Assembly: GCA_944381625.1 (NCBI GenBank)
Contig: CALWLW010000007.1
Span: 1 to 64,000 of the forward strand
Direction: 5' to 3'
Origin: an uncultured Lachnoclostridium sp.
Lineage (GTDB): Bacteria; Bacillota; Clostridia; Lachnospirales; Lachnospiraceae
DNA length: 64,000 nt
The position numbers and the translations under genes were made by a program. Each line of letters opens with the position of its first letter. Within the stretch, counting starts at the first letter, position 1. This document shows, piece after piece, positions 13,877 to 38,705 of the stretch. A model generated the notes under the pieces. The model was not told the origin of the DNA. It saw nothing but the letters and a program-made list of their open reading frames with translations, and made no database searches.

Positions 13877-13907
13877 AGATTCTTTTCCCGCCTGTCTTAT
13901 TTAAGTA

Positions 13908-14744: not shown

Positions 14745-14756
14745 ATGCTCCTCCTT

Positions 14757-15653: not shown

Positions 15654-15666
15654 GATACCCCTCCTT

Positions 15667-16959
15667 TTAATCTTCTTCTGCGGCGGCCTTCAAAGCGTTC
15701 TGCATGCCCGCCATGCCGTCTTCGAAGCTCATCTCGCCAGAATAAATTTTCAACAGTATCTCGCTTACATCCGGTTTCCACACGGAACGGTATTTGTTGT
15801 TGACAGACTGTACGCTGTAGTCGAACATATCCACGAAACACTCCACGTTCAACCGGTAATCAAACTGGTCGAACACGTCGATCCAGGTCTGTTCCAGCCC
15901 CTCATAAGCCGGGATTGCCGCGCCGGATTCTCCCTGAATCCTCTGTCCTTCCTCCGATCCGAAGAAGCGCAGGACGTCCTTGACGATATCCAGATTCTTA
16001 TTGGCCGGCGACGTCGCGTAGCACAGACCATTGGAGATGGTCGCTCTTCCTTCGCCGGAAGCGGGATCCGGGCACATGGGCAGGACTGCCACGTCCCATT
16101 TTCCTTCCATATTCGGATAGTTGTTCATCTCGGCCAGGATGTTCCAGTTCCCTTCCAGGAACATGGCGCCCTGCTCGGAGAAGAATGCCGTACCCGGGGA
16201 AGTCTCCGCAAAATAATTCTGGTCGGGACACCAGTCTTCTTTCTGAAGATCGATATAGAACCTCATGGCGTCCTGGGTCGCCTGCTCGTCGAAGCCGCCG
16301 GTTACTCCGTCCTCTTTCAGGATGCAGCCCCCATTCTGGTATACAAAATTCCAGTATCCCAGCTGGTCGTCGCCGTATGCCATATAGCCGTATTTGCCGG
16401 TGGCGTCATAGATTTTCTGAGACGCCTCGCACAGGTCGTCCCATGTCCAGGTCTCGTCGGGATAAGCGACTCCCGCGGCGTCGAACATTTCCTTGTTGTA
16501 CACAAGTCCTACCGTGTCCTTGTCCTTGGGCACCCCATAGTAGCGCCCGTCGCTTCCCTGGACATTCATCAGCGATACTTCCGAGAAATGCTCCTCATAA
16601 TATCCCGGATCCGTCTCATCGTACAGATCCGTCAGATCGGCAATCTTGCCGTAATCTGCATATTTAAGGATCTCGTTGGTATGCATCCAGAAAATATCCG
16701 GCATCTGATTGGAGATCGCCGCAGCCTCCAGCTTGGTCCAATATTCGCTCCAGCTGGTTACCTGGACCTCTATCTCCACATCCGGATGTTCCGCCGTATA
16801 GGCGTCGCACATCATCTGCATGCCGTCTCTCTGGGCCACGTCCCAGATCTGGAATGTGAGATGGGTTTTCCCGTCCGCCGAACCGGTTCCACAGCCCCCC
16901 AGCGCAAGGGCAGCGGCGCACACCGCCGGCAGCACAGCCACTTTTTTCAGTTTCTTCAC
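15667..16959 (-). CDS. Sugar ABC transporter substrate-binding lipoprotein (family 1 SBP)
   Basis: The start was trimmed to a GTG (VKKLKKVAVLPAVCAAALALGGCG) with an AAGGAGGG RBS. The lipobox is LGGC. The ORF-track extension upstream lacks an RBS. Confidence 0.8.
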   Translation of the reverse strand: MKKLKKVAVLPAVCAAALALGGCGTGSADGKTHLTFQIWDVAQRDGMQMMCDAYTAEHPDVEIEVQVTSWSEYWTKLEAAAISNQMPDIFWMHTNEILKYADYGKIADLTDLYDETDPGYYEEHFSEVSLMNVQGSDGRYYGVPKDKDTVGLVYNKEMFDAAGVAYPDETWTWDDLCEASQKIYDATGKYGYMAYGDDQLGYWNFVYQNGGCILKEDGVTGGFDEQATQDAMRFYIDLQKEDWCPDQNYFAETSPGTAFFSEQGAMFLEGNWNILAEMNNYPNMEGKWDVAVLPMCPDPASGEGRATISNGLCYATSPANKNLDIVKDVLRFFGSEEGQRIQGESGAAIPAYEGLEQTWIDVFDQFDYRLNVECFVDMFDYSVQSVNNKYRSVWKPDVSEILLKIYSGEMSFEDGMAGMQNALKAAAEED

Positions 16960-17136
16960 GCCTTTCCCTCCTTTTTGTGAACTTGATACAGAAACTAAAA
17001 TCAAATGTGTATACGAATTATACCAATTCACCAATACAAGGTGATATGAACAAGAGAAATATTTATATACCAAAATGCAATATCTGTACAAATTTTGTAT
17101 GATATGCTATCATTTTGGTATATCAGGAGGATCTTA

Positions 17137-18068: not shown

Positions 18069-19991
18069 ATGGTCCCAGAATATTCTCAGGCTCGAAAACT
18101 GGCGCAGAAAGCATACCGCCAGGATATGTACGCCAAACGCAACCCATACCTTCAGGTTCTGGATGAACTCCTCCCCCTGGTCAGGACTGCCGGGGAGATG
18201 GATCTGGGACTGGTGGAAATCCCCCTGTCACGCATCGCGGGCACAAAGACTTCCGGCCGCACCCGGGCTTTTGCCGGCAATTTCATGCCTCTGCTTCCGG
18301 AGGAATCTGAGTTCGCCGACAAATGGTGTTCTCTCTATCTGTCCCACCTGGAAGAAGGCATCCGGGAACCGGTCATCGCCTGCGAATTTATGAATTATTA
18401 TTACATTATAGAAGGAAATAAGAGGGTCAGCGTGTTAAAGTTTGCTGGCGCAGTCAGTGTGCCTGCTTACGTGACGCGCATCATACCCGCGCCGGGCGAC
18501 ACGCCGGAGCTTAAGATCTATTATGAATATATGGATTTTTACCGGGCGTCCGGCGTCAATACCATATATTTTACCAGAGAGGGGAGTTTTTCCCGGCTTT
18601 GCGGGTTTATGGGCAAAGATATCCACACCCCCTGGACCCGGGACGACCGGATGCTCTTTACTTCTGCCTTTTTTCGTTTCTCCCAAATCTACAGAGAAAA
18701 AGGCGGCGAAAAGCTGGCCCTCCAGCCGGGGGACGGATTCCTTCTGTACCTGAGCGTCTACGGGTGGGAAGGAATGCTGGATAAATCCATGGATCAGCTC
18801 CGCCGGGAGATCGTCCTGCTGTGGCCGGACCTGGAATCCATGGCGTCAGGAGGAGCCGTGCGCCTGATCACACAGCCGGCAAAGCCAAAGGAAAAATCCT
18901 TCATTAAAAAACTGATCCCCGCGTCCCGGCCCCGGCTGACCGTCGGCTTCATCCATTACGGCACAATCCATACCTCCGGCTGGACCTATGCCCACGACCT
19001 GGGCCGGCTCTATCTGGAGGATGTGATGGGAGACCAGATCACCACCCGCGTGTACGACGATATACAGGGAGATAAGGACGGGGGAGCCGCCATCGAGCAG
19101 GCCGTCGCAGACGGCTGTCAGGTGGTATTTACCACATCGGTGCGTTTTCTGGACGCCAGTATCCGCGCTTCCATCCGGCACCCGGAAATCCGGATCCTGA
19201 ATTGTTCCCTGAATACCTACACCGGGCATCTGCGCACTTATTACGGGCGGCTCTACGAAGCCAAGTTCCTGGTGGGCATGCTGGCGGGCATCCTCTCGGA
19301 CTGCGGAAGGATCGGCTACATCGCGGAGACGCCTCTGGGAGGGACAGCCGCCGCCGTCAACGCTTTTGCCCTGGGCGTGCAGACCGTATTCCCCGGGGCA
19401 AAAGTGGTGCTGGAGTGGTCTTCCGCGAGAGACGGGGATGCGGAGCAAAAACTGAAGGACGCGGGCGTCGGCCTGATCTCCGGTCCGGAGATGCTGGCTC
19501 CGTCCCATTCCCCCCGCCCTTACGGACTGTACCGTCCTGAGGGCAGCGGAGGCGTCAGTCTGGCCTCGTCCATATGGCACTGGGGAAAATTTTATCACCA
19601 GATCATGCAGACAATCCTCAACGGCAACTGGGGACGGGACGGACAGGGGATGGACGGGGATTCCATCAACTACTGGTGGGGAATCTCTTCCGGCATTATC
19701 GACGTGATTTTTTCCAAAAATGTCCCCCGCCGCTCCATACAGTTGGTGGAGCTGATGAAGCGGCAGATTGTCAACGGAAATTTCCAGATTTTCTCCGGCG
19801 GCGTCCGCAGCCAGGACGGAACGCTGCAGGTTCCCGACGGGACGCCCCTTACGCCGCCTCAGATCGTCCGCATGGACTGGCTGGCGGAGAATGTGGAGGG
19901 CAGGATTCCCTCCCCGGACGAGCTGAACGAGGAGGCCTCGCGCATGATGAAAAACCAGGGAATCTTCCCGGGAAAGGACGGAATTTTATGA
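18069..19991 (+). CDS. Hypothetical protein with an N-terminal ParB/Srx-like fold region and a C-terminal BMP-family (PnrA-like) binding domain, with no signal peptide
   Basis: The C-terminal 330 aa resemble BMP-family lipoprotein binding domains (TVGFIHYGTIHTSGWTYAHDLG...GYIAETPLGGTAAAVNAFALG). The N-terminal region has a VEIPLSRIAGT motif. The start was chosen at ATG 18069 with an AAAGGAG RBS. Confidence 0.5.
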   Translation: MVPEYSQARKLAQKAYRQDMYAKRNPYLQVLDELLPLVRTAGEMDLGLVEIPLSRIAGTKTSGRTRAFAGNFMPLLPEESEFADKWCSLYLSHLEEGIREPVIACEFMNYYYIIEGNKRVSVLKFAGAVSVPAYVTRIIPAPGDTPELKIYYEYMDFYRASGVNTIYFTREGSFSRLCGFMGKDIHTPWTRDDRMLFTSAFFRFSQIYREKGGEKLALQPGDGFLLYLSVYGWEGMLDKSMDQLRREIVLLWPDLESMASGGAVRLITQPAKPKEKSFIKKLIPASRPRLTVGFIHYGTIHTSGWTYAHDLGRLYLEDVMGDQITTRVYDDIQGDKDGGAAIEQAVADGCQVVFTTSVRFLDASIRASIRHPEIRILNCSLNTYTGHLRTYYGRLYEAKFLVGMLAGILSDCGRIGYIAETPLGGTAAAVNAFALGVQTVFPGAKVVLEWSSARDGDAEQKLKDAGVGLISGPEMLAPSHSPRPYGLYRPEGSGGVSLASSIWHWGKFYHQIMQTILNGNWGRDGQGMDGDSINYWWGISSGIIDVIFSKNVPRRSIQLVELMKRQIVNGNFQIFSGGVRSQDGTLQVPDGTPLTPPQIVRMDWLAENVEGRIPSPDELNEEASRMMKNQGIFPGKDGIL

Positions 19992-20578
19992 AGATCATGG
20001 CAATCTCGGATGTGGAATCGCCCGCGCTGTGGGATTATTTCCAGCCGGAACGGCTGAAGGATATTGATGTGATTCTCTCCTGCGGGGATCTGGATCCACG
20101 GTACCTGTCATTTCTGGCCACCTTCTTCTCCGGTCCGGTTCTTTATGTCCACGGCAATCACGACAGCTGCTACGGAACCACGCCGCCGGAGGGCTGTATC
20201 TCCATTGAAGACCGGATCTACGAATACAAAGGCGTGCGGTTCCTGGGGCTGGGCGGTTCCATGCGCTACAAACCCGGCCCTTTCCAGTACACCCAGTTCG
20301 AGATGAACCTTCGAGTCTTAAAACTCTGGTTCCAGCTGAAGCGCCGGAAGGGCTTCGACGTACTGGTTACACATGCCCCGGCCTACGGGCTGGGAGACGG
20401 CAAAAACCTCACCCACACAGGGTTTAAGGCGTTCCTGACGCTGATGGAACGATATCATCCGCCGTTCTTCATCCATGGCCATATTCACCTGTCTTACAAC
20501 CCCACGGCCAGGAGAATGAACCAGTACGAACACACAACCGTGATCAACGCATATGAAAAATACGTCTTTGAGATCTGA
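19988..20578 (+). CDS. Metallophosphoesterase (calcineurin-like phosphoesterase)
   Basis: MKIMAISDVESP...ILSCGDLD...GNHD...HGHIH motif series. Its ATG overlaps the upstream stop by 4 bp, which suggests translational coupling. Confidence 0.7.
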   Translation: MKIMAISDVESPALWDYFQPERLKDIDVILSCGDLDPRYLSFLATFFSGPVLYVHGNHDSCYGTTPPEGCISIEDRIYEYKGVRFLGLGGSMRYKPGPFQYTQFEMNLRVLKLWFQLKRRKGFDVLVTHAPAYGLGDGKNLTHTGFKAFLTLMERYHPPFFIHGHIHLSYNPTARRMNQYEHTTVINAYEKYVFEI

Positions 20579-20591
20579 ACAGACGCAAAAA

Positions 20592-20628
20592 CGGGCCCGC
20601 TGACGCGGACCCGCATATTTTTTTATAA
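20592..20628. terminator. Bidirectional intrinsic terminator (serves metallophosphoesterase on + and SRP RNA on -)
   Basis: gggcccgc tgac gcggaccc hairpin followed by T7 on the plus strand and by TTTTTG on the minus strand. Confidence 0.55.
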
Positions 20629-20896
20629 TTCCGTGCATCCTGCTTTGAACAGCCGGCGCGGAACGTTACCTGCGCAGCCAGCTCAGCCCAGGCGCCCTCA
20701 CGGCACACAGGAGCTCCCGCTTAGTGCTGCTTTGTTCCCAACCTGACACGGTTCACAGGTTCCTGTTGCGTAAGACCCGGACATCGGCGCCGCTTACACA
20801 GGGCAGCTTCCGACCGGACAGCCCGAGGCAGGATATCACCCCTACTATGGCGGATTGTAGGTACAGGGCTCCGCCGCTTCCCCGGCTGCACGGAAA
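20629..20896 (-). ncRNA. ffs: Signal recognition particle RNA, large Bacillus/Clostridium type with Alu domain (scRNA/ffs)
   Basis: The minus strand reads GCCCUGUACCUACAAUCCGCC...GUGUCAGGUUGGGAACAAAGCAGCACUAAGCGGGAGCUCCUGUGUGCCGUGAGGGCGCCUGGGCUGAGCUGGCUGCGCAGGUAACG. This closely matches domain IV (GUCAGGUCCGGAAGGAAGCAGC) and the Alu region of B. subtilis scRNA. The 5' and 3' ends pair (CCGUGCAGCCGGGG with CCGGCUG...GCACGG). Confidence 0.8.
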
Positions 20897-20920
20897 TCTT
20901 ATGACAATATAAAAATAAAT

Positions 20921-20949
20921 GCCTGTACAGTATAGCCTCTTTTCACGGA
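20921..20949 (-). promoter_or_regulatory. Consensus sigma-A promoter for the SRP RNA (-35 TTGACA, 17-nt spacer, -10 TATACT)
   Basis: The minus strand reads TTGACAaatccgtgaaaagaggcTATACT, about 25-30 nt upstream of the mature SRP RNA 5' end. Confidence 0.6.
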
Positions 20950-21003
20950 TTTGTCAAATTATAAGTTTGGCGCGCCGCCGGCAGTCCTTTCGGGAGCCGC
21001 GGT

Positions 21004-24000
21004 TTACCATTTCAGCGACTTGATCCAGAAATCCAGCACCCCCAGGGGACTTTTGGGATTCAGGTAGGTCAGACCGGCAAAGGTGTATCCTGCCGTCTCC
21101 ACTTTTCCGTCGTCCCGGAGGCCGAAGGAAGCCAGCTCGCCGGCCAGGACGGAGGTCACATGGCTCCAGTCCCCGGTTTCCAGCTCTTTTACACTATTCG
21201 CGCCCGCGGCCACTACGGTTCCGTCGCTCTTCAGGCCCAGCACGTGTCCGTTGGACACGGACACATCCACGATATCCGTCCAGGCGCTCACGCTGCCACT
21301 TACGCCAGGATTATTGCCGGCGCAGGCCACCGTACCGTCTGTACGGATCCCCAGTGTCACCAGATTATAAGCAGTATCCACCTTGACGATCTGGCTCCAG
21401 TCCCAGTCCTCCGTCTGGGTGACCTGACCCATGGTGTTGGCTCCCATGACCAGAAACGTGCCGTCTTTTAACTTTACCGCATAGGTGCCGGAACGCCCCG
21501 TCACGCTTTCGGCCTGGTATTTGCCCTCAGGGCCGAACTGTTCCTCCAGCGCGTCGCTGATGGCTTTCCAGTTCCACACGTCTCCGCTGCCGGCCAGGCA
21601 GGCCCTGCCGTCGGCGCAGACGCCGTACACCAGTTCCGAGTCCTCGCTGCCGTCGGGGTGACTGGTAGCCAGGATCTGCACCACGTCCGTCCAGCCGTCC
21701 ACGCCGTAGCCTTCGTCCATGGGCGTGCCTGCCGCCGCCACCGTGCCGTCTTCTCTCAGTCCTACGATCCGGTGAGCCGATACGCTGATGGCTTTTATAC
21801 CGGTCCACTCCGCCGCTTCCTGCACGGCCGCATCCTCTTTCGCGGCCACCAGGACCCTGCCGTCGGCGGTAAGGCCCGCGCTGAACTCCATGCCTGTGCC
21901 CACATCGATCACGTTTTCCCAATCCGATACGTTGCACTGGCCGCCCTGGTTCCTGCCGTTGGCTTTCACGGTCCCATCCTCACGAAGTCCCAGCACATGA
22001 TAATAGCTGTTGGCCACTTTTGTGATATGGTTCCATCCAGAGGCGTAGAGCATATTGTTCAGGCAGGTGACCGCCACTGTCATCACGGCCAGGAACCCCA
22101 CGGCCTGAAGAAAGTAGGTCAGCGGGGGAATCAGCCGCTTTTCCGCCTGGATCCCTTTGTAATGGGCGGAATGGCTGACCTGATAAGACGGGATCTCCGG
22201 CCTGGGAAGTTTATATTTTCCGCAGACGGCGTCCATGGCCTTCCGGTAGGCGTCTCCCAGCCTTATTTCCATATTTATGACGGCGTCCGCCGCCTCCCGT
22301 TTGTGCCTGATGGCCTCGGCAGCATTCCTGGCCCGCACCATCATCATGGCCCGGTCCACGAAGAGCAGCGCCGCAGGAAGCAGAAGCAGCACCAGCTGGG
22401 AACTGCGGATCTGAATCCTGGTAATTTTATAGAGTACCACCGCGCCGATCAGGCCCCCAATCAGCACATAGCTGTTGGGAACCAGGCAATACACCCAGAG
22501 TACAATCAGAGCCAGCGATACTCCGAAGAAGATTCGGGAAATATTATAGTAGCCGCTGGTGTAATTCGTGCTGTACGCAATGTTGGTCAGCAGGAACTGA
22601 AAGGACAGCAGCATGGCCGTCAAGGACAGCCCCAGCAGAATCGCCCGCAGGCGGGAACCGCCCCGGTCCACCGGCTGGGCCAGCTCCGTGTGCTCGTAGG
22701 CATACTCCAGTTTTTCCTGCTCCGCAAACAGCGGCTCCGCCGCCGTATCCCGCCGCTCATAGGCCGCGCGCACCGCGTCCAGCTCCTGCTGGCGGCGGAT
22801 GCCCGTATGCCAGTCGTCCAGTTTCTGGAAACGGTCGTCAAAAGCGGGCAGATAGAGTTTCACCCGCTCCTCGGCCTGCTCCACGTCCGCGTTCTCCCCG
22901 ACATGATAATCTGTGAGATTTTTCGTGGCGCGCAAAAGAGCGTCCCATGCCGCGTCCCCGCAGAGCGCCGTCATGGTCCGGGTGTACGCCTCCGCCTGGC
23001 CTTTATCCGCGTGCTGGAGGGCCTGACGGTAGTGGTGGTCGACCTCCTCTGAAAGCGCCGGTTTTTTCAGGTTCTCCGTCATGGCGCATACCATACCCCA
23101 GTGGGCCCGGTATTCCTGACCGTCGCTTAGGACGGCTTTTTCGAACATCTTTTTCGCCTTGTTCCAGTCTCCCTTTTCCAGCGCCTCAGAGCCCTGGCGC
23201 AGAAGCTCCAGATTCTTTTTCACCAGCGCCGCCGAGCGGTTCTGCCGACCGAACATCCGGTTGATCTCTTCGGTCACCCGGTTCTGGAAATCGCTGCCCT
23301 CGCAGGGAATGGACTGGAGCGTCTGCAGCTCCAGCGGCAGATCCTCCGGCCGTATGCCCCGGAACACGGACAGCATCTTACGGCCCGCGTCCTGTCTGCG
23401 GTAGGCCAGGAATCGCCGCCAGACCGCCTGGAACCGGGCGTCCTCCCATCTGGTGCCGGGAGCCGCCGTCACGATCATGGCCTCGGCCTTCTCCGCCGCC
23501 GCCATCTCATAGAGGTTCAGATCCTGGCGGGGAACGCCGGAGAGCATGCCCGGATGGAAGATCCGGTAACCCATGTCCTCCAGGGCTTTGCCCACCTGCA
23601 CGGACAGCAGGAAATCCTCCGTCCCCTGAGACGCGGTGCAGTCGATATAAATATCCGGGGCCGTGAGAGTCCTGGAGATGGCCATGAGCTTCTGATGCTG
23701 GGCGTCGATCCTCCGGGCCATCCCTTCATAATAGCAGCGGGACGCCTGGGGCACATAGGACATCATCTTTTCATAGGCCGGGTCCTTCACAAAGGAGCCG
23801 TGCTCCACCCGGTGGAAGATCACGCCGCCGTAATCCAGGGCGTTCTCGGACAGTTCCACGCCATATTTGCTCAAAAGATAGCCCCAGTTGGCCTCCGGCT
23901 CCGCGCCGTCCACCTTCAGGATCCGACTGTAGTAATTCAGCGCCACGTCGTAGTTTCCCGCGTGCCTTGCGTCGGAAGCCAGCAGATAGAGGTTTTCCTT

Positions 24001-24117
24001 CTGGGCAAACTGATTGGGCAGCACGAACAGGGCCTGGCAGGCGGGGCAGGTGCTCACCTTCACTCCCTCCGCCGCCTCGATCCGCGCTCCGCACTGGGTG
24101 CATCTGTATATGCTCAT
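21004..24117 (-). CDS. Large membrane protein: N-terminal CxxC...CxxC zinc ribbon, divergent TIR-like domain, TPR-like helical repeats, about 5 TM helices, and C-terminal RCC1-like repeats (paralog 3 of 3)
   Basis: 1037 aa. Zinc ribbon CTQCG...CPAC. TIR-like block DIYIDCTASQGTEDF...GYRIF...AEAMIVTAAPGTRWEDARF. Five hydrophobic helices at about aa 480-700. The C-terminus has about 6 repeats of the RCC1 pattern (HVLGLREDGTV.A.G.N..GQ). Confidence 0.7.
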   Translation of the reverse strand: MSIYRCTQCGARIEAAEGVKVSTCPACQALFVLPNQFAQKENLYLLASDARHAGNYDVALNYYSRILKVDGAEPEANWGYLLSKYGVELSENALDYGGVIFHRVEHGSFVKDPAYEKMMSYVPQASRCYYEGMARRIDAQHQKLMAISRTLTAPDIYIDCTASQGTEDFLLSVQVGKALEDMGYRIFHPGMLSGVPRQDLNLYEMAAAEKAEAMIVTAAPGTRWEDARFQAVWRRFLAYRRQDAGRKMLSVFRGIRPEDLPLELQTLQSIPCEGSDFQNRVTEEINRMFGRQNRSAALVKKNLELLRQGSEALEKGDWNKAKKMFEKAVLSDGQEYRAHWGMVCAMTENLKKPALSEEVDHHYRQALQHADKGQAEAYTRTMTALCGDAAWDALLRATKNLTDYHVGENADVEQAEERVKLYLPAFDDRFQKLDDWHTGIRRQQELDAVRAAYERRDTAAEPLFAEQEKLEYAYEHTELAQPVDRGGSRLRAILLGLSLTAMLLSFQFLLTNIAYSTNYTSGYYNISRIFFGVSLALIVLWVYCLVPNSYVLIGGLIGAVVLYKITRIQIRSSQLVLLLLPAALLFVDRAMMMVRARNAAEAIRHKREAADAVINMEIRLGDAYRKAMDAVCGKYKLPRPEIPSYQVSHSAHYKGIQAEKRLIPPLTYFLQAVGFLAVMTVAVTCLNNMLYASGWNHITKVANSYYHVLGLREDGTVKANGRNQGGQCNVSDWENVIDVGTGMEFSAGLTADGRVLVAAKEDAAVQEAAEWTGIKAISVSAHRIVGLREDGTVAAAGTPMDEGYGVDGWTDVVQILATSHPDGSEDSELVYGVCADGRACLAGSGDVWNWKAISDALEEQFGPEGKYQAESVTGRSGTYAVKLKDGTFLVMGANTMGQVTQTEDWDWSQIVKVDTAYNLVTLGIRTDGTVACAGNNPGVSGSVSAWTDIVDVSVSNGHVLGLKSDGTVVAAGANSVKELETGDWSHVTSVLAGELASFGLRDDGKVETAGYTFAGLTYLNPKSPLGVLDFWIKSLKW

Positions 24118-24173
24118 GGTTTATTCCTCCTCCGTCTCATAGGGATAGGGCATGCCCACATCTTCCATATCTT

Positions 24174-26825
24174 TCATGGCGTTGCGCATACCAATGTCCG
24201 AATCGGTGGTTCCATAGTCTCCCCGGTCAGATGGGCCCCTCTCTCACTTTTAACATAGACCGTTTCCTCATCCGTAGCGGCTATGGCCGCAAAGTAGAAA
24301 TAGTCGGCGTCGATGCTCACCGTGGCTATCTTTCCGCACCCCCGGTAAACGGCCAGCACACCAGTGTCTCCAAGTCCTGACTCCACGCCGCTTTCCAGAA
24401 GCCGCCCATCCGAGGTCACGGCCAGCACGCCGTTGCCAGTCTCTCCCCTGCGCCATTTCGCGGCCAGGATCTTCTCCTCGTCCGTCCACATCAGCTCCGG
24501 CAGCTTCGACAGTTCCTCCCTGCTTTTGGCCGGCGGCACCAGAATCGCGTAGGCAATGTCGCTCCAGTCTCCGGGAATCTCCACCGAAGCGTCCGTGCAA
24601 TAAATACTGCCGTCGCTTCGCACGGCAATCACATCGCCGCCGCACACATCGAACACGGACACGTCGGAAGCCACCTGGCCCCGGCCCGTCACATACAGGC
24701 CGCCGTCCGCCGTAAGTCCCGCCGCGATCTGGTCGCTCACATGGATAGACACCAGGTTGCTCCATCCATCCACGCCGCCGAAGTCTCTGGCTCTGCCCAG
24801 CAGATAGGCCGTCCCGTCCCGGCGCACCACGCCTCCGGAGGCGCCGCTGTCAGACAGGGACACGGAAAGTACCTTGCCCTCTTCCAGCCCGAAGCTCTCG
24901 TCCATGCCGTAGCTGAGCAGATCGCCGTCCTCATTAACTGCAAGGAGTTTATTGGGCGCGCCGCAGAGGTAGCCCCGGTTAAAGGCCTGCCTCCACGCCT
25001 TCAAAAACGCCTCTTTATCGCCGCGTTCGTCGCTGCTGTACATGTTCCTCAGAGTCTCCCAGGCTTCATAGAGCCTGCCTTCCTCCAGGTACTGCACGCC
25101 TTCCTCTTCCAGATCCTCCAGCTTGCCCTGGGCCTCCGCCACATAGGCGGTCGTTCCCCGGATATCGGACACCGCATCCGCCCGCAGCCTCATATCGTCC
25201 AAAGCTGCCACCGCATTGCTGTAAGTAATCTGCTTCATAATCGCCTTACACTGTTCCGCCATCTGGGCGCTGTCCTTGTAGTCCTCCAGATCCCTGTACA
25301 GATCGTAAGCCTCCTGCCATTGGCTGTGGTTGAAGGCCGTGGTGGCTTCCTTGTACTGCTTCGCCGCCACGCCCGCCGGAGATTTGGTATAAGAAATATA
25401 GGCGATCAGCCCGGCCACGGCGATCACCGGAACGGCGATGAGAAAAGCCCGGATACGCATGGCCCGCTTTCTTTTTCTCCACTCCTCCATCTGCCGCTTC
25501 TGCTCCTCGGCCTTCAGAACCTCCTCTTCTTTCCGCCTCCGCTCTTCTTCCTGCTCGGCCTCCAGACGCTGACGCTCCTTTTCCTGCTCGGCATAGACGG
25601 ACGCCATCTCCCGCACCCGCTCCGCCACGTCCCGGTAGGTCTGCTGCTCCCGCTCGCTGGCGAAGGCCAGGGCGCTGCGGTAATTCCCTTCTTCCGTGAT
25701 CTCCCGGCCGCTTTCGATCAGCGCCTCCTCCGAAGGGCACTCCCGTTCACAGAGCAGGAGTCCCCAGTAGGCCTGGCTCTCGGTGGGGTTCTTCAGCAGA
25801 ATCTCCTCGTATTCCCCGGCCGCCGCCTTAAAGTCCCTTTTCTCCAGAGTCTGTCTGGCTTTCAGGAGCAGGTTGGCATAGGTGAAGCTGCCGTGGGTCC
25901 CCGCCTGCTCCTTCAGCGCGCCCCGGTAGTCGGCCAGGGCGTCCTCCACTGCCGTGCGCAGATCCGCTGCAAAGGAGGGCAGAGCCATATTCAGCCTCCG
26001 GTCGATACCGTCGAAATAGCTGTCGGGAATATCCTCGTATTCATCCAGGTTTTCAAAGGCAGTCACCAGAGACGGGATCTGTCCCTTCGCCGCCCGGACG
26101 GCTTTCTCCTTCCGGTACAGGAAACGCTCCGCGTTAAAATTCACCTCGTCCGTAAACGCCGAAGGCTCCGACGCCGCCAGCACCATCAGCTTCGCCGTGG
26201 AATACGCCCGGTAAAGAGCGATCTCCTGGGCTTCCCCTTGCGGCAGTTCCGGCTCCAGCGCCTGGCAGAACACCGACAGGTTCATGGATTCCAGGAGCTG
26301 ACGGATCTGGACGGCGCGGTTCAGGGAGACCAGGCTGTCCCCGGACACCTCCAGCCATACATCCACAGGGGGATGGGATTTAGCGTAGGCAATGACCTGC
26401 TCCTGGAGCCGGTGGATCCGCTGCGCCTCCGCCTGGTATTTCTCTTTCTGGGGGTCCTCCGCCAGAGACAACGCCTTCTTCACATCCGCATACTGCAGGA
26501 AATCTCCCTTCTCCGCCTGGTGGCAGATCAGGCGGTAGGTACCGTCCTCCAGCTTTTCATATTCCACTTCATAGACCGCCATGGCGCGCCGGAACCAGGC
26601 GTCCGCGCGGTCCGGGTGCGCCTTGACAATGTCTCCGTAGGCCTGGGCCGCGCCGGCGAAATCCCGCCTCTGCACCGCCTCCGCCGCAAAAAGATAACCA
26701 CTTTCCAGCTCTGTATAGCCCTGGGGCACCGTCACCACCTTTCCGCAGTTTTTACAGACGGCTTCCCGCTGGCCGTCCCCCAGCTCCAAAAGTCCGTTGC
26801 AGACCGGACAATCAATACGCAGCAT
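24174..26825 (-). CDS. Large membrane protein: N-terminal zinc ribbon, divergent TIR-like domain, TPR-like repeats, charged coiled coil, single TM helix, C-terminal RCC1-like repeats (paralog 2 of 3)
   Basis: 883 aa. Zinc ribbon CPVCNG...CKNCG. TIR-like block VDVWLEVSGDS...NLSVF...AKLMVLAAS...NFNAERF. E/R/K-rich coiled coil (EQEKERQRLEAEQEEERRRKEEEV). TM helix AFLIAVPVIAVAGLIAYI. RCC1-like repeats at the C-terminus. Confidence 0.7.
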   Translation of the reverse strand: MLRIDCPVCNGLLELGDGQREAVCKNCGKVVTVPQGYTELESGYLFAAEAVQRRDFAGAAQAYGDIVKAHPDRADAWFRRAMAVYEVEYEKLEDGTYRLICHQAEKGDFLQYADVKKALSLAEDPQKEKYQAEAQRIHRLQEQVIAYAKSHPPVDVWLEVSGDSLVSLNRAVQIRQLLESMNLSVFCQALEPELPQGEAQEIALYRAYSTAKLMVLAASEPSAFTDEVNFNAERFLYRKEKAVRAAKGQIPSLVTAFENLDEYEDIPDSYFDGIDRRLNMALPSFAADLRTAVEDALADYRGALKEQAGTHGSFTYANLLLKARQTLEKRDFKAAAGEYEEILLKNPTESQAYWGLLLCERECPSEEALIESGREITEEGNYRSALAFASEREQQTYRDVAERVREMASVYAEQEKERQRLEAEQEEERRRKEEEVLKAEEQKRQMEEWRKRKRAMRIRAFLIAVPVIAVAGLIAYISYTKSPAGVAAKQYKEATTAFNHSQWQEAYDLYRDLEDYKDSAQMAEQCKAIMKQITYSNAVAALDDMRLRADAVSDIRGTTAYVAEAQGKLEDLEEEGVQYLEEGRLYEAWETLRNMYSSDERGDKEAFLKAWRQAFNRGYLCGAPNKLLAVNEDGDLLSYGMDESFGLEEGKVLSVSLSDSGASGGVVRRDGTAYLLGRARDFGGVDGWSNLVSIHVSDQIAAGLTADGGLYVTGRGQVASDVSVFDVCGGDVIAVRSDGSIYCTDASVEIPGDWSDIAYAILVPPAKSREELSKLPELMWTDEEKILAAKWRRGETGNGVLAVTSDGRLLESGVESGLGDTGVLAVYRGCGKIATVSIDADYFYFAAIAATDEETVYVKSERGAHLTGETMEPPIRTLVCATP

Positions 26826-28850
26826 TTATATCCTCCCCCTCTCGCACGCTTCCAGCTCTGCCTCCAGCTCGTTTATGGCTCCCGCCACCTTTTCTTCCGC
26901 GGCCTTGTACCATACTTCCTGCTGTTTTCCAAAATCCGGGTAATACCGTCTGTACGGCTCCGCCGCCTGGTCAATGCCTGTTTTCAGCCCGGCCAGCAGG
27001 TCTTCTGACAGGGCGGGAAGGCTTCTTCTCTGGGCAGCCGCCCAGCCCCTGGTCCCGGAGAGCTTTTTCATCGCTCCGCCTTCCTTCGCGAAGCTGACTG
27101 CCCAGAAGACAACCGTCACAATCAGCGCCACAATCCCCGCAAGCTTCGCGTCCCCGCTCTCCAGGACGGTGATCAGCAGGGAATACCCCAGCATCATGAG
27201 GAACAGACGGATACCGTAGGTGACGCAGCCGGTATCCAGAATCATCAGATCATTCATGATCAGCCACAGAAGGACAAAGAATGCCAGTGTGGAAACCATA
27301 TTGACGATCCCCATCTCATACAGGAACCCTTCCACCAGAAGGGGAAGCGCCACGCCCAGGGTGAGGAAAAGCCCTATTTTCAGCAGAAGGTCTTTTCCCT
27401 GGGCTGATTCCCTGGTATCCATCCGGAGCACATTGTACTCCTGAGACTGCTTTAAGAGCTGCTGGTAATTTCCCGCCGCCGCCGAACTGCCCAGCGTTTT
27501 CAGGACGCCTTCCACCTTCCGGCCGCACTCGTCGCGCCTGGTCCTGCTTTCCGCCTCCCAGTCCTGATTCTCCCGGCAGGTTTTCGCGGTCTTATGTAAA
27601 TCTTTCTTTTGCTCCTCCGACGCGCAGGCCAGCGCTTTCTTAAAATTCTCATCCTCCTCGATGGGAGACGCATACCGGGCCAGCGCTTCTCTGCCGGGGA
27701 TTTCCCGCGCGCACATCAGAAGGCCCAGATAATTCTCCGGGTCGTTTTTACCTCCCGACTGGGTCAACGCCCGCCGGAACAGCTTCTCCGCTTCTTTGTA
27801 CTCCCCGTTTACCAGGCGCACCGTGGCCAGAATCCGCGTCTTCTCCGCGCTCTCCTTTAAATCTCCTTCCGAAGAGATCTCCCCGCGCGCCTGCCTTCCG
27901 CTCTCCCTCACCTGTCTGGTAATATGGGATACGTCTTCCGTCCCGCCGCTGGCAAAATGGCCGGCCACCAGATTTAAAAGCTCGCTCCTGGCGTTGGCGG
28001 AGGTATCCATCTCCACATACGCGTCCATCTGCCGCAGAGCCTCCGGCAGATCCTCATGCCCCATATGCTGGTACACCGGTATCAGGAGACGCTGTGTGCT
28101 TCCCTTTTCTTTCCTGTCCTGGGCGATCAGATCCGCGTAGCGGCTCCACTCGTTGCGCACCCAGACCGCGTCGTAATACTCTTTCCGGGAGGCGAAGGCC
28201 AGCATGACCCTGGCGCTCTGCAGCGCCGCGAAAATACGGGGCTCGTATTCTTCGCCCACTGTCAGGGATTCCTCCGCGAAGAACACCTGATAGCCCCGGC
28301 GGGTCAGCTCCCGGTAATAATCCGCCGCCATACGGCTGTCCGCCGTCCGCTTCTCTCCTTCCGCCGTCCGCTTGTAGCAGATGAACACATCCACCGGGAC
28401 CTCCTGCCCGGAGATGGACAGGCTCTTGGACTGGATATCGTCAATATATGAACTCTGTCTCAGATAGAACTCCCGGTCCAGGGAATTCCAGGCCAGATCA
28501 ATGGCTTTTTTCACGTACAGGTATTCGCTGAATTTCTGTGTGGACAGGCGGTGCAGAGTGGGAAGCAGGTCGGCCGTGGCCGGGTCTTCCACATATTCGA
28601 TGCCGTAAACGCTCAGCGCCATCCCCCAGCATACCGCCGCGTCCGACGGATTCTCGATCAGCAGTTCCTGGAATAATTCTATGGCCTCGTCAAACCGGCT
28701 CTCCCGCAGGAGCCCGGACGCTTTCTCATAAACGCCGCCCTGGACTTCCTCCCTGGGCATGGGGTTTTCCGCCATACAGCGGGTGCAGATCCCGATGCTT
28801 CCGCCCGGTTCCGCCAGTACCTCGCCTCCGCAGTGGATACATCTTACCAT
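26826..28850 (-). CDS. Membrane protein with N-terminal zinc ribbon, canonical TIR domain, TPR-like repeats and 4 C-terminal TM helices (paralog 1 of 3)
   Basis: 674 aa. Zinc ribbon CIHCGG...CTRC. The TIR block (aa ~152-290) is VDVFICYKRTAEGEKRTADSRMAADYYRELTRRGYQVFFAEESLTVGEEYEPRIFAALQSARVMLAFASRKEYYDAVWVRNEWSRY, with a conserved glutamate in the WxxxE position. Four hydrophobic helices near the C-terminus. Its stop abuts the paralog-2 start (26825/26826). Confidence 0.75.
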   Translation of the reverse strand: MVRCIHCGGEVLAEPGGSIGICTRCMAENPMPREEVQGGVYEKASGLLRESRFDEAIELFQELLIENPSDAAVCWGMALSVYGIEYVEDPATADLLPTLHRLSTQKFSEYLYVKKAIDLAWNSLDREFYLRQSSYIDDIQSKSLSISGQEVPVDVFICYKRTAEGEKRTADSRMAADYYRELTRRGYQVFFAEESLTVGEEYEPRIFAALQSARVMLAFASRKEYYDAVWVRNEWSRYADLIAQDRKEKGSTQRLLIPVYQHMGHEDLPEALRQMDAYVEMDTSANARSELLNLVAGHFASGGTEDVSHITRQVRESGRQARGEISSEGDLKESAEKTRILATVRLVNGEYKEAEKLFRRALTQSGGKNDPENYLGLLMCAREIPGREALARYASPIEEDENFKKALACASEEQKKDLHKTAKTCRENQDWEAESRTRRDECGRKVEGVLKTLGSSAAAGNYQQLLKQSQEYNVLRMDTRESAQGKDLLLKIGLFLTLGVALPLLVEGFLYEMGIVNMVSTLAFFVLLWLIMNDLMILDTGCVTYGIRLFLMMLGYSLLITVLESGDAKLAGIVALIVTVVFWAVSFAKEGGAMKKLSGTRGWAAAQRRSLPALSEDLLAGLKTGIDQAAEPYRRYYPDFGKQQEVWYKAAEEKVAGAINELEAELEACERGRI

Positions 28851-29305
28851 CTCTCTTCCCCCTCGCTCTCCCTGTTATTTTTCTGTCCGGCACGCCGCTT
28901 TCCTTCCCGATCCAGCTCCGTCATCCGAAGAGCCGCGGAGCCGGCGGCGATGGCGAAGACCGCGGCCAGCGCCAGAATCAGGATCTCCAGAAAGGCAACC
29001 ATCCTCCAGCTGCTCCCCGGCAGGAAGCTCCCGATGATCCCGACCCCGATGGTCAGCACCGGATAGAGCCACAGCGGATACATGGTATCCTCAAAATTGG
29101 CCGCTGTCTGGAGACTGTCCGCTCTGGCCACGCCGAACCAGAGCCCGCCTCCCGTAAGCACCAGGGACAGCACCGAAAATCCGAATCCAATCCAGGAACC
29201 GGCCTTTTCCATATCCACGAACAGGAAAAATGCCGCCAGATACACTGCCAGCAGGATTCCCGCAATCACCAGCACACGAATTCCATAAGAACTTTGCTTC
29301 TTCAT
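28844..29305 (-). CDS. Small integral membrane protein (4 TM helices) with charged C-terminal tail
   Basis: 153 aa. Hydrophobic segments VLVIAGILLAVYLAAFFLFV, IGFGFSVLSLVLTGGGLWFGV, LWLYPVLTIGVGIIGSFL, AFLEILILALAAVFAIAAG. It overlaps the TIR paralog-1 start by 7 bp and follows the SPFH gene by 3 bp. Confidence 0.6.
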   Translation of the reverse strand: MKKQSSYGIRVLVIAGILLAVYLAAFFLFVDMEKAGSWIGFGFSVLSLVLTGGGLWFGVARADSLQTAANFEDTMYPLWLYPVLTIGVGIIGSFLPGSSWRMVAFLEILILALAAVFAIAAGSAALRMTELDREGKRRAGQKNNRESEGEERW

Positions 29306-29308
29306 AAC

Positions 29309-30778
29309 CTATTCCTCCCCTCTCTTTTTGCCGCATCCGCCGCAGAACAGGGAATCCGCCGGATTCTCCCGTCCGCAGGCACAGGTCCAGGGGCCTTCCG
29401 GCTCCGGCCGTTTGCTGCCGCAGCCTCCGCAGAACCGCGCGTCTTCCGGGTTCACCCGCCCGCAGGCGCAGGTCCAGCCGGCCGGCGCGGCAGGCGCCTG
29501 CGGGGCTTCCTGGGCGGGCGCACCCTGGGACGAGGCCTGCGCGGACGCACCCTGGGGCGCCGCCCCGTAGGGATTGTTCATACCCGCGTAAGGATTCGGT
29601 ATCTCCCCTGATCCGGGCGGCACAACCGCTCCGCCGGGAGCCTGCGCTCCCATGTTCATGGCTCCTGCCATATTGGAGCCCGCCGCGCCCGCGCTGTTCA
29701 TGGTATCTTTCATGATACCGCCCATATTTTTCATCATTTCCAGGCCGATGCCCATCTTCATCACGTCGCCGAAAAAGCCTGTCATGTCTCCCATGCCGCC
29801 TCCCGCGCCGCCGGAACTGCCTTCTGCCTGGCCGCCTCCCAGCGCGCCGGCATCCACCATCCGATTCATGGTGTCGAACTGATGCTCCTGTACCGAGGTG
29901 ATGCCTTCCAGGGAACGTCTGACAGCCTCGCCCTGGGCGCCCATCACCGTCGTCCGGGCCGCCACATCGGCTTCCACCAGCTTCTTCTCCCCTTCCAGCC
30001 GGGCAAGCTGAGCCTCCTGCTCCGCCTGCTTCCTGCGCAGCTCGTACTCCAGATCCAGCTTACCGTGCTGGATATAACGGCCTTCAGCCAGAAGCCGCGC
30101 TTCCTGAAAGGCGTGGTTGTCTTCCGGCAGCGCGAACGCGTCCACGTAGAACTCCCGAAGCTGGATCCCGTACTGCAGGAACTCCGGCTTCAGCACCTCC
30201 AGCAGTCCCTGGCTGATATCGTTCAGGTGCTGATCCAGCGTAAACGCGTTCATGCTGCACTGCTGGATCACCCTTGCCAGATAGGTCTTGATCTTGGTAT
30301 TGAGCATGCTGTTAAACATATCCCGCATGCTCATGGCAGTCAGTTCCTGCCCTGTTCCCAGCAGCCAGCACAGCATCTCCTTCACCTGGTTCGGGTCAGG
30401 CTGTACGTTCATGGTGCCGCTGGCGCCCACGTTCAAGGGCATGGCTTTCCCCGGCTCCACCTCCAGCATCATGTTGACCCTCTCCCTGGTCCCCCAGGGA
30501 ATGGACATCTGTACGGCTAAATTTACAAAATAGACTTCACAGTGGAAATATCTCCCGAATCGGAGTTTTGTGAAAAATCGAAGAAAAGGGTAATTCCGGG
30601 TCTCCAGGACATGCATGCCCGGCCCCAGCACTTCCACGGCCTGCCCGTCACGGAAAAAGACCGCGGCCTGAGACTCATGCACCACAAGCCTCGCGCCGAA
30701 CTCAAAATCCTCTGTGGCGCACTTCCACGCCATCACATCAGTCCTTCCCTCATCTACCATCATGCTTCCTAACGCCAT
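29309..30778 (-). CDS. SPFH/band-7 domain protein with Gly/Met/Ala-rich low-complexity linker and two tandem C-terminal zinc ribbons (COG4260-like)
   Basis: 489 aa. The N-terminal 300 aa match SPFH-family proteins (ARLVVHESQAAVFFRDGQ...). A coiled-coil segment follows (KQAEQEAQLARLEGEKK). The C-terminus is WTCACGRVNPEDARFCGGCGSKR followed by WTCACGRENPADSLFCGGCGKKR. GGGGGA RBS before the ATG. Confidence 0.75.
   Translation of the reverse strand: MALGSMMVDEGRTDVMAWKCATEDFEFGARLVVHESQAAVFFRDGQAVEVLGPGMHVLETRNYPFLRFFTKLRFGRYFHCEVYFVNLAVQMSIPWGTRERVNMMLEVEPGKAMPLNVGASGTMNVQPDPNQVKEMLCWLLGTGQELTAMSMRDMFNSMLNTKIKTYLARVIQQCSMNAFTLDQHLNDISQGLLEVLKPEFLQYGIQLREFYVDAFALPEDNHAFQEARLLAEGRYIQHGKLDLEYELRRKQAEQEAQLARLEGEKKLVEADVAARTTVMGAQGEAVRRSLEGITSVQEHQFDTMNRMVDAGALGGGQAEGSSGGAGGGMGDMTGFFGDVMKMGIGLEMMKNMGGIMKDTMNSAGAAGSNMAGAMNMGAQAPGGAVVPPGSGEIPNPYAGMNNPYGAAPQGASAQASSQGAPAQEAPQAPAAPAGWTCACGRVNPEDARFCGGCGSKRPEPEGPWTCACGRENPADSLFCGGCGKKRGEE
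29330..29485. repeat. Tandem direct repeat (period about 78 bp, 2 copies) encoding the duplicated zinc ribbon at the 3' end of the SPFH gene
   Basis: Two adjacent near-identical segments are visible in the nucleotide sequence (ccgcagaac...ccgcaggc[a/g]caggtccag...). They are mirrored in the protein as two WTCACGR..P.D..FCGGCG.KR units. Confidence 0.6.
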
Positions 30779-30854
30779 AGCTTTTATCCCCCTGCGTTTA
30801 AATATTAAGAATCATGATGCCCCTTTTATTCATATTTTGTCAATGATGTGAACT

Positions 30855-32180
30855 TTAACATTTTCCAGAACTGTCCCGCTTCCGGCGTACCTGTCCCAAA
30901 AGAAACGGCGCCGCAAACAGCAGGGCTTTGCAGATATTATCCGCGATCATGCAGTACCACACGGCGCGCAGTCCCAGCCCCCAGACCCGCACGCAGAGGA
31001 ACGTGGACAGGATGCGCACGCCCCACATCCCCGCCGTCTCCACGCCGAACGCATAGCGTGTCCGCCCCAGGCCGTAGAAAACGCCTTCCAGCACGATCAT
31101 CAGGCCAAAAAACGGCTCGGACAGAGCCACGATGCGGAGCATCTCCCCGCCCAGCCGCACCACCTCCCCGCTGGTGGTAAACAGTCTCATAAGCGGGTAT
31201 GCCCCCGCGTACAGGACCGCGCCGCTGGCAAACATGACGGCCAGGGTCAGAAAGACGCTCAGCTTCCCCACTGCCCGGATCTTTTCTCCGTCCTGTTCTC
31301 CCCTGGCCGTCCCAATCAGAGCCGAGGTTGCCGTCCGCAGGCCGTAGCCCGGCACATAGAAAATGGTCTCTGCCGTCACCGCGATAGAATGAGCCGCGAA
31401 TACCGTCGTGCCCATGCCGGAGACCAGGCTGGCAAACACCACGTATCCCAGGCAGGAGACCACGCTGGTGCCCAGCACCGGGAGCCCGGCGTCCGCGCAT
31501 TCCTCCAGCAGTCCCCGGTCTGCGGAGAAATCCTTCCATTCCCAGGCAAGCTCCCGTTTCCGCCGGTACGCGGCGTACATGAGGATTCCCGAAAGGGCAT
31601 AAGATACGGCGGACGCCGCTGCCGCCCCGCTGACCCCCATCCCCAGGGCATAGATCAGAACATAGTTGAGCACAATATTCAGCACGTTGGCCGCCACGCT
31701 GATCAGCATGGGCGTCTTCGTATCCTGCACTGCCCGCAGGGCGTCGCCCAGCACGGAGCCGGCCGTGCGGAACACCATGGGCAGACTGACGATCAGGAAA
31801 TACCGGGACGCTTCGGCACGGATGCCGGGATCTGCGCCCATCCATCCGGGAATGTACGGGCTCAGCACGACTGAAAAGCCGCCCAGCGCCAGGCCGGACA
31901 GCACAGACAGCAGCAGAGCCTGCTGCGACAGCTTTTTCACTTGTTTCTGGTCGCCTGCTCCGGCGGCTCTTGAGATCAAAATCAGCATGGCGGTGCCGAT
32001 GGCCCCCGGAACGCTGTTGACCAGCCAGGTCACGGTGGTGGTCGTACTCACCGCCGCCGTGGCCTCCTCGCCCAGCCGCCCCACCATGGCCGTATCCACA
32101 TACTGGAGCAGTGTGGCCAGGATCTCCTCTATGACCGTCGGAAGCGACAGCATCAGAAGCCTGGCCGCGTATTTTCTCAT
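30855..32180 (-). CDS. MATE family efflux transporter
   Basis: 441 aa, 12 predicted TM helices, MATE-like N-terminus (LPTVIEEILATLLQYVDTAMVGRLGEEATAAV). Confidence 0.85.
   Translation of the reverse strand: MRKYAARLLMLSLPTVIEEILATLLQYVDTAMVGRLGEEATAAVSTTTTVTWLVNSVPGAIGTAMLILISRAAGAGDQKQVKKLSQQALLLSVLSGLALGGFSVVLSPYIPGWMGADPGIRAEASRYFLIVSLPMVFRTAGSVLGDALRAVQDTKTPMLISVAANVLNIVLNYVLIYALGMGVSGAAAASAVSYALSGILMYAAYRRKRELAWEWKDFSADRGLLEECADAGLPVLGTSVVSCLGYVVFASLVSGMGTTVFAAHSIAVTAETIFYVPGYGLRTATSALIGTARGEQDGEKIRAVGKLSVFLTLAVMFASGAVLYAGAYPLMRLFTTSGEVVRLGGEMLRIVALSEPFFGLMIVLEGVFYGLGRTRYAFGVETAGMWGVRILSTFLCVRVWGLGLRAVWYCMIADNICKALLFAAPFLLGQVRRKRDSSGKC

Positions 32181-35373: not shown

Positions 35374-38705
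<3,332 letters not shown>

Follow-up and report, generated by a model that had tools for sequence, protein, structure and literature searches.

A five-gene operon from an uncultured Lachnoclostridium sp. raises the question of what a bacterial TIR domain with an intact catalytic position is doing in a membrane protein whose two paralogs, encoded next to it, have lost that position. The operon lies on the minus strand at about 20.6-30.8 kb of the 64,000-nucleotide stretch analysed here (hereafter the window: GenBank assembly GCA_944381625.1, contig CALWLW010000007.1, positions 1 to 64,000), and encodes in order an SPFH/zinc-finger protein, a small membrane protein, and three paralogs that we call P1, P2 and P3. 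The reading that we favour is that P1 is a TIR enzyme, that P2 and P3 are sensors carrying pseudo-TIR domains, and that the SPFH protein organises the complex; we give this scheme as a whole a probability of roughly 0.45. The genes and domains that it involves are as follows:

29309..30778, minus strand: SPFH protein, 489 aa, first gene of the operon (Pfam, hydropathy, orthologues in related loci)
28844..29305, minus strand: small membrane protein, 153 aa, with four hydrophobic helices (hydropathy)
26826..28850, minus strand: P1, a TIR protein of 674 aa (open reading frame, Pfam, hydropathy, orthologues)
27981..28397, minus strand: TIR domain of P1, residues 152-290 (Pfam, AlphaFold2, Foldseek, family profile)
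28005-28388, minus strand: Pfam TIR_2 match in P1, residues 155-282
28149..28151, minus strand: codon gag of E234, the predicted catalytic glutamate of W230-V-R-N-E234 (direct read and alignment)
24174..26825, minus strand: P2, 883 aa (open reading frame, Pfam, BLASTP, hydropathy)
25938..26384, minus strand: pseudo-TIR of P2, residues 148-296 (hhalign, AlphaFold2, PDB fold matches)
21004..24117, minus strand: P3, 1037 aa (open reading frame, Pfam RCC1_2, hydropathy, paralogy)
23251..23685, minus strand: pseudo-TIR of P3, residues 145-289 (hhalign)
21007-22050, minus strand: RCC1-type beta-propeller of P3, approximately residues 690-1037 (Pfam RCC1_2)

Three nucleotides separate the SPFH gene from the small membrane protein gene, whose stop overlaps the start of P1 by 7 nt; the stop of P1 directly abuts the start of P2, and 56 nt lie between P2 and P3.

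The original prediction, made from the letters of the sequence, had placed a canonical TIR domain at 27981-28397. These positions translate exactly to P1 residues 152-290 (PVDVFICYK...ANARSE), and the domain is there: residues 155-282 score 46.5 bits (E = 6.1e-12) with the Pfam model TIR_2 (PF13676), whose gathering score is 28, and the classical Pfam TIR model gives a weaker match. A search of the PDB with the single P1 TIR sequence returned weak matches only (E >= 0.17), with alignments that include L6, AtTIR and SNC1. A profile built from 15 diverse relatives of the region, used in place of the single sequence, matched TLR15/TLR2 best (2.3e-6), then AbTir (3.9e-5), with further matches to Roq1, AtTIR, RUN1, TIR-STING, TcpB/BtpA, PdTIR, L6 and SNC1. 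An AlphaFold2 model of residues 143-300 (predicted local distance difference test, pLDDT, 89.8; predicted template modelling score, pTM, 0.86) has five strands alternating with helices in the order A-E, and all 50 of its best Foldseek matches in the PDB are TIR domains (template modelling scores of about 0.55-0.72), including the NAD+-cleaving SARM1/TIR-1, AbTir and SPARTA TIR-APAZ.

Within this domain the motif WVRNEW starts at residue 230, and the codon of E234 (28151-28149) reads gag. It had been predicted that this residue corresponds to the catalytic glutamate of TIR enzymes that cleave NAD+. In every residue-level alignment obtained, W230-V-R-N-E234 does fall on the W-x-x-x-E of known TIRs, among them the catalytic glutamates of AbTir and of plant TIRs: the counterparts are WCLME in L6, WCLDE in AtTIR and WCLNE in SNC1 (single-sequence alignments), and WTNYE in AbTir, WCLEE in Roq1 and WCQYE in TLR15 (family-profile alignments). 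Helix alpha-C starts at residue 229 of the P1 model, which makes E234 the sixth residue of the helix. Neither W230 nor E234 varies in any of the 120 database relatives compared or of the 127 ordinary family TIRs in the loci that we fetched, and the 120 relatives share the motif A-V-W-V-[KR]-N-E-W-S-R-[YF] around the glutamate. The TIR is also the best-conserved part of P1, with a mean identity of 70% over six genomes against 47% for the whole protein. One detail of the original prediction needs correcting, in that the hydrophobic segment around AFAS, VMLAFA at residues 215-220, forms strand beta-C, third in the model, and not beta-D. It is nearly certain that P1 is a bona fide TIR with a glutamate at the catalytic position. 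At the level of domain annotation this claim is correct but routine, because NCBI labels close homologues 'TIR domain-containing protein'; that P1 is in addition an NAD+-cleaving enzyme is a prediction from sequence that we think somewhat better than even.

Over their first 400-450 residues P1, P2 and P3 are genuine paralogs of one another (BLASTP E = 4e-18, 1e-14 and 2e-21, the last two for P3 against P1 and P2), and neither P2 nor P3 has a Pfam TIR match at E <= 1. Against the TIR of the P1 family, hhalign nevertheless aligns residues 148-296 of P2 (96.8%, E = 2.8e-10) and residues 145-289 of P3 (98.3%, E = 1.7e-14). The AlphaFold2 model of the P2 region (pLDDT 91.7) has its elements in the same order as P1, and its best matches in the PDB are TIRs (SARM1, L7, RPS4/RRS1 and SPARTA; E = 1e-4 to 1e-3), weaker than those of P1 and mixed with other flavodoxin-like folds. 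The tryptophan of W-x-x-x-E and the beta-A motif DVFICYK have been lost in both paralogs. The original prediction pointed to FNAERF in P2 and RWEDARF in P3, which do occur at residues 230 and 223, and took them to keep an acidic residue in a drifted context; the profile alignments do not support its equivalence to the catalytic glutamate. In P3 the column of the catalytic glutamate holds V232, which is Val or Ile in all orthologues (taken from neighbouring loci), and the tryptophan column holds Arg, while E225 of RWEDARF, always Glu or Asp, lies 7-9 residues upstream of the catalytic column, opposite D227 of P1. For P2 the register is set by profile alignments and secondary-structure positions: hhalign leaves a gap at the catalytic column and puts E233 opposite S236 of P1, and a hidden Markov model alignment puts residue 231, Asp in 12 of 17 orthologues, in that column. 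Position 233 is itself Glu in only 12 of the 17, the others having K, K, Q, L and G.

The active site is thus gone from P2 and P3, and a TIR-derived fold is kept in both. About 21 orthologous clusters of P2 were found, none of them with a Pfam TIR match. Over six genomes the TIR-equivalent regions have mean identities of 65% in P3 and 50% in P2, against 45-47% for the whole proteins, from which we conclude that the pseudo-TIRs are still under constraint and are not decaying. It is quite probable that neither P2 nor P3 is catalytic. The best-conserved feature of the P2 pseudo-TIR is an invariant acidic motif, E-Y-x-D-I-P-D-x-x-F (in fuller form L-D-E-Y-E-D-I-P-D-S-x-F-D-G-x-D-x-R), which follows beta-D at residues 261-278 (window 25992-26045). 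At the same site E-D-[LI]-P is common to P1, P2 and P3, and in P2 the motif may be an interaction surface.

P1 consists of an N-terminal CxxC...CxxC zinc ribbon, TPR, the TIR and a TPR/helical region; four membrane helices (488-588) come next, and the 86-aa tail beyond them leaves no sizeable outer domain by hydropathy. P2 has a zinc ribbon, TPR, pseudo-TIR, TPR, a coiled coil and one membrane helix (460-478), beyond which lies a predicted extracytoplasmic part of 405 aa with RCC1-like repeats. P3 has a zinc ribbon, TPR, pseudo-TIR and a TPR/helical region, followed by about five membrane helices and, at the C-terminus, a propeller of RCC1 type (RCC1_2, E = 5.3e-16, Pfam). Given cytoplasmic zinc-ribbon N-termini, the TIR and pseudo-TIR domains would be cytoplasmic and the C-terminal domains of P2 and P3 would lie outside. 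The sole paralog with an intact active site is the one without a sensor-like ectodomain, outer domains being confined to P2 and P3. The SPFH protein combines a Band_7_1 domain (residues 22-220, E = 6.1e-28) with a C-terminal double zinc ribbon (residues 438-483; DZR, E = 2.3e-6), both detected by Pfam, joined by a Gly/Ala/Met-rich low-complexity stretch, and has no hydrophobic membrane segment by hydropathy. The 153-aa small membrane protein has no significant Pfam family.

The gene order SPFH-membrane protein-P1-P2-P3 recurs in Lachnoclostridium sp. An131 and An138 and in metagenome-assembled genomes of Merdimonas (two), Acetatifactor and Oscillospiraceae, while the flanks of these copies otherwise differ. 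P1 orthologues are 41-55% identical in six other genomes, and an SPFH orthologue is present in every complete copy of the module. In related loci homologues of the small membrane protein separate the SPFH gene from the TIR gene, and in the metagenome loci they usually do so. Among 80 metagenome loci (L013-L092), which are the most similar ones and not independent of each other, so that the counts describe a tendency and carry no corrected statistic, 49 have a co-directional SPFH gene no more than 1.5 kb from the TIR open reading frame (median gap 722 nt, maximum 1,504); an SPFH gene is present in 12 of the 13 with at least 4 kb on both sides, and 28 of the 80 have two or three TIR open reading frames. 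Linkage of the TIR family to SPFH is a strong tendency. In one genome, GCA_054271675.1, two tandem P2-like genes (876 and 868 aa) lie between P1 and P3 (L003 12042-17331), so the number of pseudo-TIR paralogs varies. A DUF4760 protein is encoded between the Band_7_1 and TIR genes in two distant loci (L010 5359-5784; L011 9538-10011); it was dropped as a candidate part of the module, as it was not found in the other loci.

The same layout as that of the operon's SPFH protein is known from Bacillus subtilis YdjI (SamI), which has an SPFH domain, a stretch of low complexity and a C-terminal zinc finger but no membrane anchor (PMC8581546; bioRxiv 10.64898/2026.02.06.704340), and is brought to the membrane by SamG and SamH (PMC8581546; PMC9239133; bioRxiv 10.64898/2026.02.06.704340). 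SamG is membrane-integral and begins with a zinc ribbon (PMC9239133). Like the SamGHI (YdjGHI) membrane-stress module, the operon joins an SPFH gene with a small membrane protein and zinc-ribbon membrane proteins, the likeness being one of layout and description. Unlike those of SamGHI, the zinc-ribbon proteins here have TPR and TIR domains and large outer domains, and the SPFH gene comes first. No match to the PspA family, the product of a gene linked to SamGHI, was found among the operon and flanking genes scanned. We take YdjI to be a member of PF13421.

On the scheme proposed here, P1 would be a membrane-tethered TIR NAD+ hydrolase, which would act either by depleting NAD+ or by producing a signal derived from ADP-ribose; the former is the simpler output, because the operon is without a recognisable signal-binding effector. 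TIR enzymes such as SARM1, AbTir and the plant TIRs form their active site through TIR-TIR assembly. P2 and P3 would be sensor or regulator subunits, whose outer RCC1-like domains may read an envelope or extracellular cue and which would steer assembly of the P1 TIR through TIR-TIR and zinc-ribbon/TPR contacts. The SPFH protein would be recruited to the zinc-ribbon membrane proteins in the way that SamI is recruited to SamG and SamH, and together with the small membrane protein would organise or restrain the complex in the membrane. The suggestion in the original prediction of one catalytic paralog with two sensor or scaffold paralogs gains support here, from the pseudo-TIR folds and from the predicted RCC1-like outer domains of P2 and P3.

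Several observations weigh against this scheme. The same glutamate is present in animal receptor TIRs (TLR15/TLR2 alignment), which have long been regarded as adaptors, and its conservation alone is therefore no proof of catalysis. Two of the motifs on which the original prediction relied are present in altered form: the DVFISY-like start of beta-A exists as DVFICYK, with Cys in place of Ser in P1 and in 119 of 120 relatives, and after beta-B the GxxVF of GxxVFxD is kept (G186-Y-Q-V-F-F-A192) while its final Asp is Ala or Ser throughout the family. Thoeris, like other systems of TIR signalling, depends on an effector that a signal activates, and with Pfam, PADLOC or NCBIfam the operon showed none that has a signal-binding domain, be it SLOG, Macro, SIR2, SLATT or another. 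ThsB of Thoeris is likewise a bacterial TIR with a conserved catalytic glutamate, and some Thoeris loci have tandem TIR genes too; in the present locus no effector domain occurs in the five genes or their neighbours. The PADLOC and NCBIfam models returned only sub-threshold TIR matches for the five proteins (Aga TIR, PDC-S66, ThsB, FxsC and ThcB4), with E = 0.044 for the PADLOC ThsB model and 25.6 bits against a cut-off of 220 for the NCBIfam model of Thoeris type III ThcB4. Assignment of the operon to a named defence system was rejected on these scores, and the flanking genes in the window are not a defence island. The membrane topology of the operon proteins is a prediction from a hydropathy scan, and the case for heteromer formation and for binding of the SPFH protein is one of gene linkage, partly in the non-independent metagenome loci, and of analogy with SamGHI.

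The TIR and pseudo-TIR domains might instead be interaction modules of a SamGHI-like stress complex without NAD+ chemistry, the glutamate having a structural or interface role. An SPFH protein of SamI layout and three zinc-ribbon membrane proteins like SamG would suit such a scaffold (PMC8581546; PMC9239133), as would the housekeeping context, the lack of an effector gene in the operon, the fact that two of the three paralogs do without the glutamate, and its retention in TLR TIRs. A scaffold would leave aside that W230 and E234 are invariant in the family samples while neighbouring surface positions vary, that the closest structural matches include proven NAD+-cleaving TIRs, and that only paralogs accompanied by an intact copy have lost the motif, as would be expected if one active site has to be preserved. 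We consider the scaffold doubtful, though it is the main rival of the favoured scheme. A further possibility is that P2, P3 or both are also catalytic via a shifted acid (D/N231 or E233 in P2, E225 in P3). The acids in question are no further than one or two helical turns from the catalytic column, E234 of P1 is paired by BLAST with E233 of P2, and position 225 of P3 is always acidic; against this, the P2 candidates are each conserved in just 12 of 17 orthologues (Glu at 233, Asp at 231), the tryptophan and the beta-A motif are missing from both proteins, in the profile alignments the catalytic column of P3 is Val/Ile and that of P2 a gap, and Pfam detects no TIR in either. Catalysis by P2 or P3 is very unlikely.

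Since characterised bacterial NAD+-cleaving TIR proteins are mostly anti-phage (PMC11350192; bioRxiv 10.64898/2025.12.03.692087), the operon might serve abortive infection, with the outer domains of P2 and P3 sensing phage adsorption or a breach of the envelope and P1 depleting NAD+; this is a specific version of the favoured scheme with phage as the trigger. The ectodomains of the family are highly variable (DUF6273, RCC1, LRR_5), DUF6273 comes up in papers on receptor-binding proteins of phages and on targets of diversity-generating retroelements, and some relatives are near Fic, PIN-TPR or HicAB genes, all of which would fit. The window, on the other hand, offers no defence-island context, PADLOC models stay below significance beyond weak TIR similarity, and the family is near-absent from viral contigs (two loci), which argues against a mobile origin and is not decisive; a phage trigger strikes us as unlikely. 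Least probable of all, and hardly credible, is that P1 is secreted and, in the manner of TcpB/BtpA or TcpC, serves virulence or host mimicry by disturbing Toll-like receptor signalling. It is a TIR protein of gut-associated Clostridia, and TcpB and PdTIR are among its sequence and fold matches, but it has a zinc-ribbon N-terminus and no signal peptide, and its gene is part of a conserved operon that also encodes membrane and SPFH partners. Because the TIR precedes the four membrane helices it should stay in the cytoplasm, and a secreted role was rejected on this predicted topology.

Returning to the scheme of one enzyme with two pseudo-TIR sensors, its parts can be compared with known systems. 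P1 has the same fold as the NAD+-cleaving TIRs (SARM1/TIR-1, AbTir, SPARTA, RUN1, L6 and Roq1) and the same W-x-x-x-E with the glutamate aligned, and DVFICYKR and WVRNE of P1 are close to the corresponding SARM1 motifs, which we take to be DVFISYRR and WVHKE. Unlike those proteins, P1 has its TIR flanked by a zinc ribbon with TPR on one side and a second TPR region on the other, and is anchored in the membrane by four helices; it has the beta-A cysteine already mentioned, and has no ARM/SAM, Argonaute, NB-ARC or SAVED partner. In the plant pair RRS1/RPS4 an intact TIR is likewise encoded beside paralogous TIRs that lack the glutamate and come with sensing parts, and one of the best fold matches of the pseudo-TIR of P2 is the TIR heterodimer of RPS4/RRS1. 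The comparison extends to receptor pairs of enzyme and pseudoenzyme at large. Unlike the plant proteins, P1-P3 are membrane proteins with predicted extracytoplasmic sensors and not cytosolic nucleotide-binding leucine-rich-repeat receptors; their split is an independent duplication within Clostridia, and a heterodimer is here only proposed. In architecture, family members outside the three-paralog clade recall Toll-like receptors, as they join an outer domain (LRR_5, RCC1, DUF6273), membrane helices and a cytoplasmic TIR. Unlike in Toll-like receptors, the TIR is N-terminal to the membrane segment, zinc-ribbon and TPR parts are added, and P1 is without an outer domain; nothing indicates that the architecture as a whole goes back to a common ancestor.

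P1 belongs to a large family, unnamed apart from its NCBI label. With residues 1-460 as query there are 3,112 representatives at 50% identity (E <= 1e-30), and more than 3,787 matches at 90% clustering, with TIR_2 in all 120 of those listed; among the best 150 listed relatives the match starts at residue 2-7 in nearly all, and lengths range from 228 to about 1,900 aa. The family layout, into which P1 fits, is an N-terminal CxxC...CxxC, TPR, TIR_2, TPR and membrane helices, and the C-terminal domains that follow TIR_2 are variable (DUF6273, RCC1_2, LRR_5, more TPR). The typical member unites an ectodomain and an intact TIR in one chain, and the three-paralog arrangement is a narrow offshoot, because there are only about 21 P2 clusters beside a family of this size. 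At least 516 relatives were found in metagenome contigs, and 2 in the 2.9 million viral contigs scanned. These two IMG/VR contigs (L093, L094) also carry an SPFH gene beside the family TIR, and may be misclassed host regions or prophage flanks. Prophage or mobile-element origin of the operon was rejected on the viral count and the housekeeping flanks. Our literature searches on TIR with SPFH, zinc-ribbon, TPR or membrane architecture in Clostridia found no paper on this family.

Two sites at the ends of the operon were picked up by consensus scans:

30814..30843, minus strand: promoter-like site TTGACA-18-CATCAT just 5' of the SPFH gene (10/12 matches; no evidence of function)
20591..20614, minus strand: strong terminator-like hairpin with a 10-bp stem, 8 G-C pairs and a T run (consensus scan alone)

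The hairpin is about 390 nt past the stop of P3 and is common to the operon and the convergent gene at 19574-20578. Between the P3 stop and the hairpin, at 20615-21003 on the minus strand, there is no convincing open reading frame; in Lachnoclostridium An131 a 64-aa open reading frame of CxxCxGxG type follows P3 (L001 17920-18114). Within the window, the operon is flanked by genes for sugar ABC transport and GH36, for a calcineurin-like phosphoesterase and a MATE pump, and for DUF3737. At 11681-17091 and 35392-37284 a GH36 alpha-galactosidase, a sugar ABC transporter and an AraC regulator make up an ordinary chromosomal context of carbohydrate use, in which a putative RpiR regulator and a putative phosphotransferase system (PTS) EIIBCA were also picked out by eye. 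No mobile-element genes were seen next to the operon region. G+C is 0.59-0.62 at 20000-32000 compared with 0.45-0.57 in most of the window, which may hint at a separate origin.

To our knowledge, almost all bacterial TIRs studied so far are cytosolic anti-phage systems or secreted virulence factors. P1 differs in being, by prediction, membrane-tethered, in having its catalytic site intact while paired with apparently outward-facing pseudo-TIR paralogs, and in its genetic tie to a flotillin-like SPFH protein of SamI type. What the analysis adds, as read from sequence, is the probable split into an executor and pseudo-TIRs, the predicted outside-in topology, and the family-wide linkage to SPFH in a large uncharacterised family of gut Clostridia. 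It is tempting to go further and speculate, as a tentative possibility and not a likely one, that gut Clostridia possess a large class of surface receptors, each with a variable outer domain and an enzymatic cytoplasmic TIR, which would be functional counterparts of Toll-like receptors held in a SamI-like SPFH scaffold, and that in this operon the class has been split into an executor, P1, and pseudo-TIR sensors, P2 and P3, in parallel with the plant pairs. If the favoured mechanism holds, it would mean outside-in signalling to a bacterial TIR enzyme, would link SPFH scaffolds to NAD+ chemistry, and would show that TIRs outside plants, too, have a natural division of labour between enzyme and pseudoenzyme. 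Human and animal gut metagenomes are rich in this family, which may affect how dominant commensals respond to envelope stress, phages or host factors.

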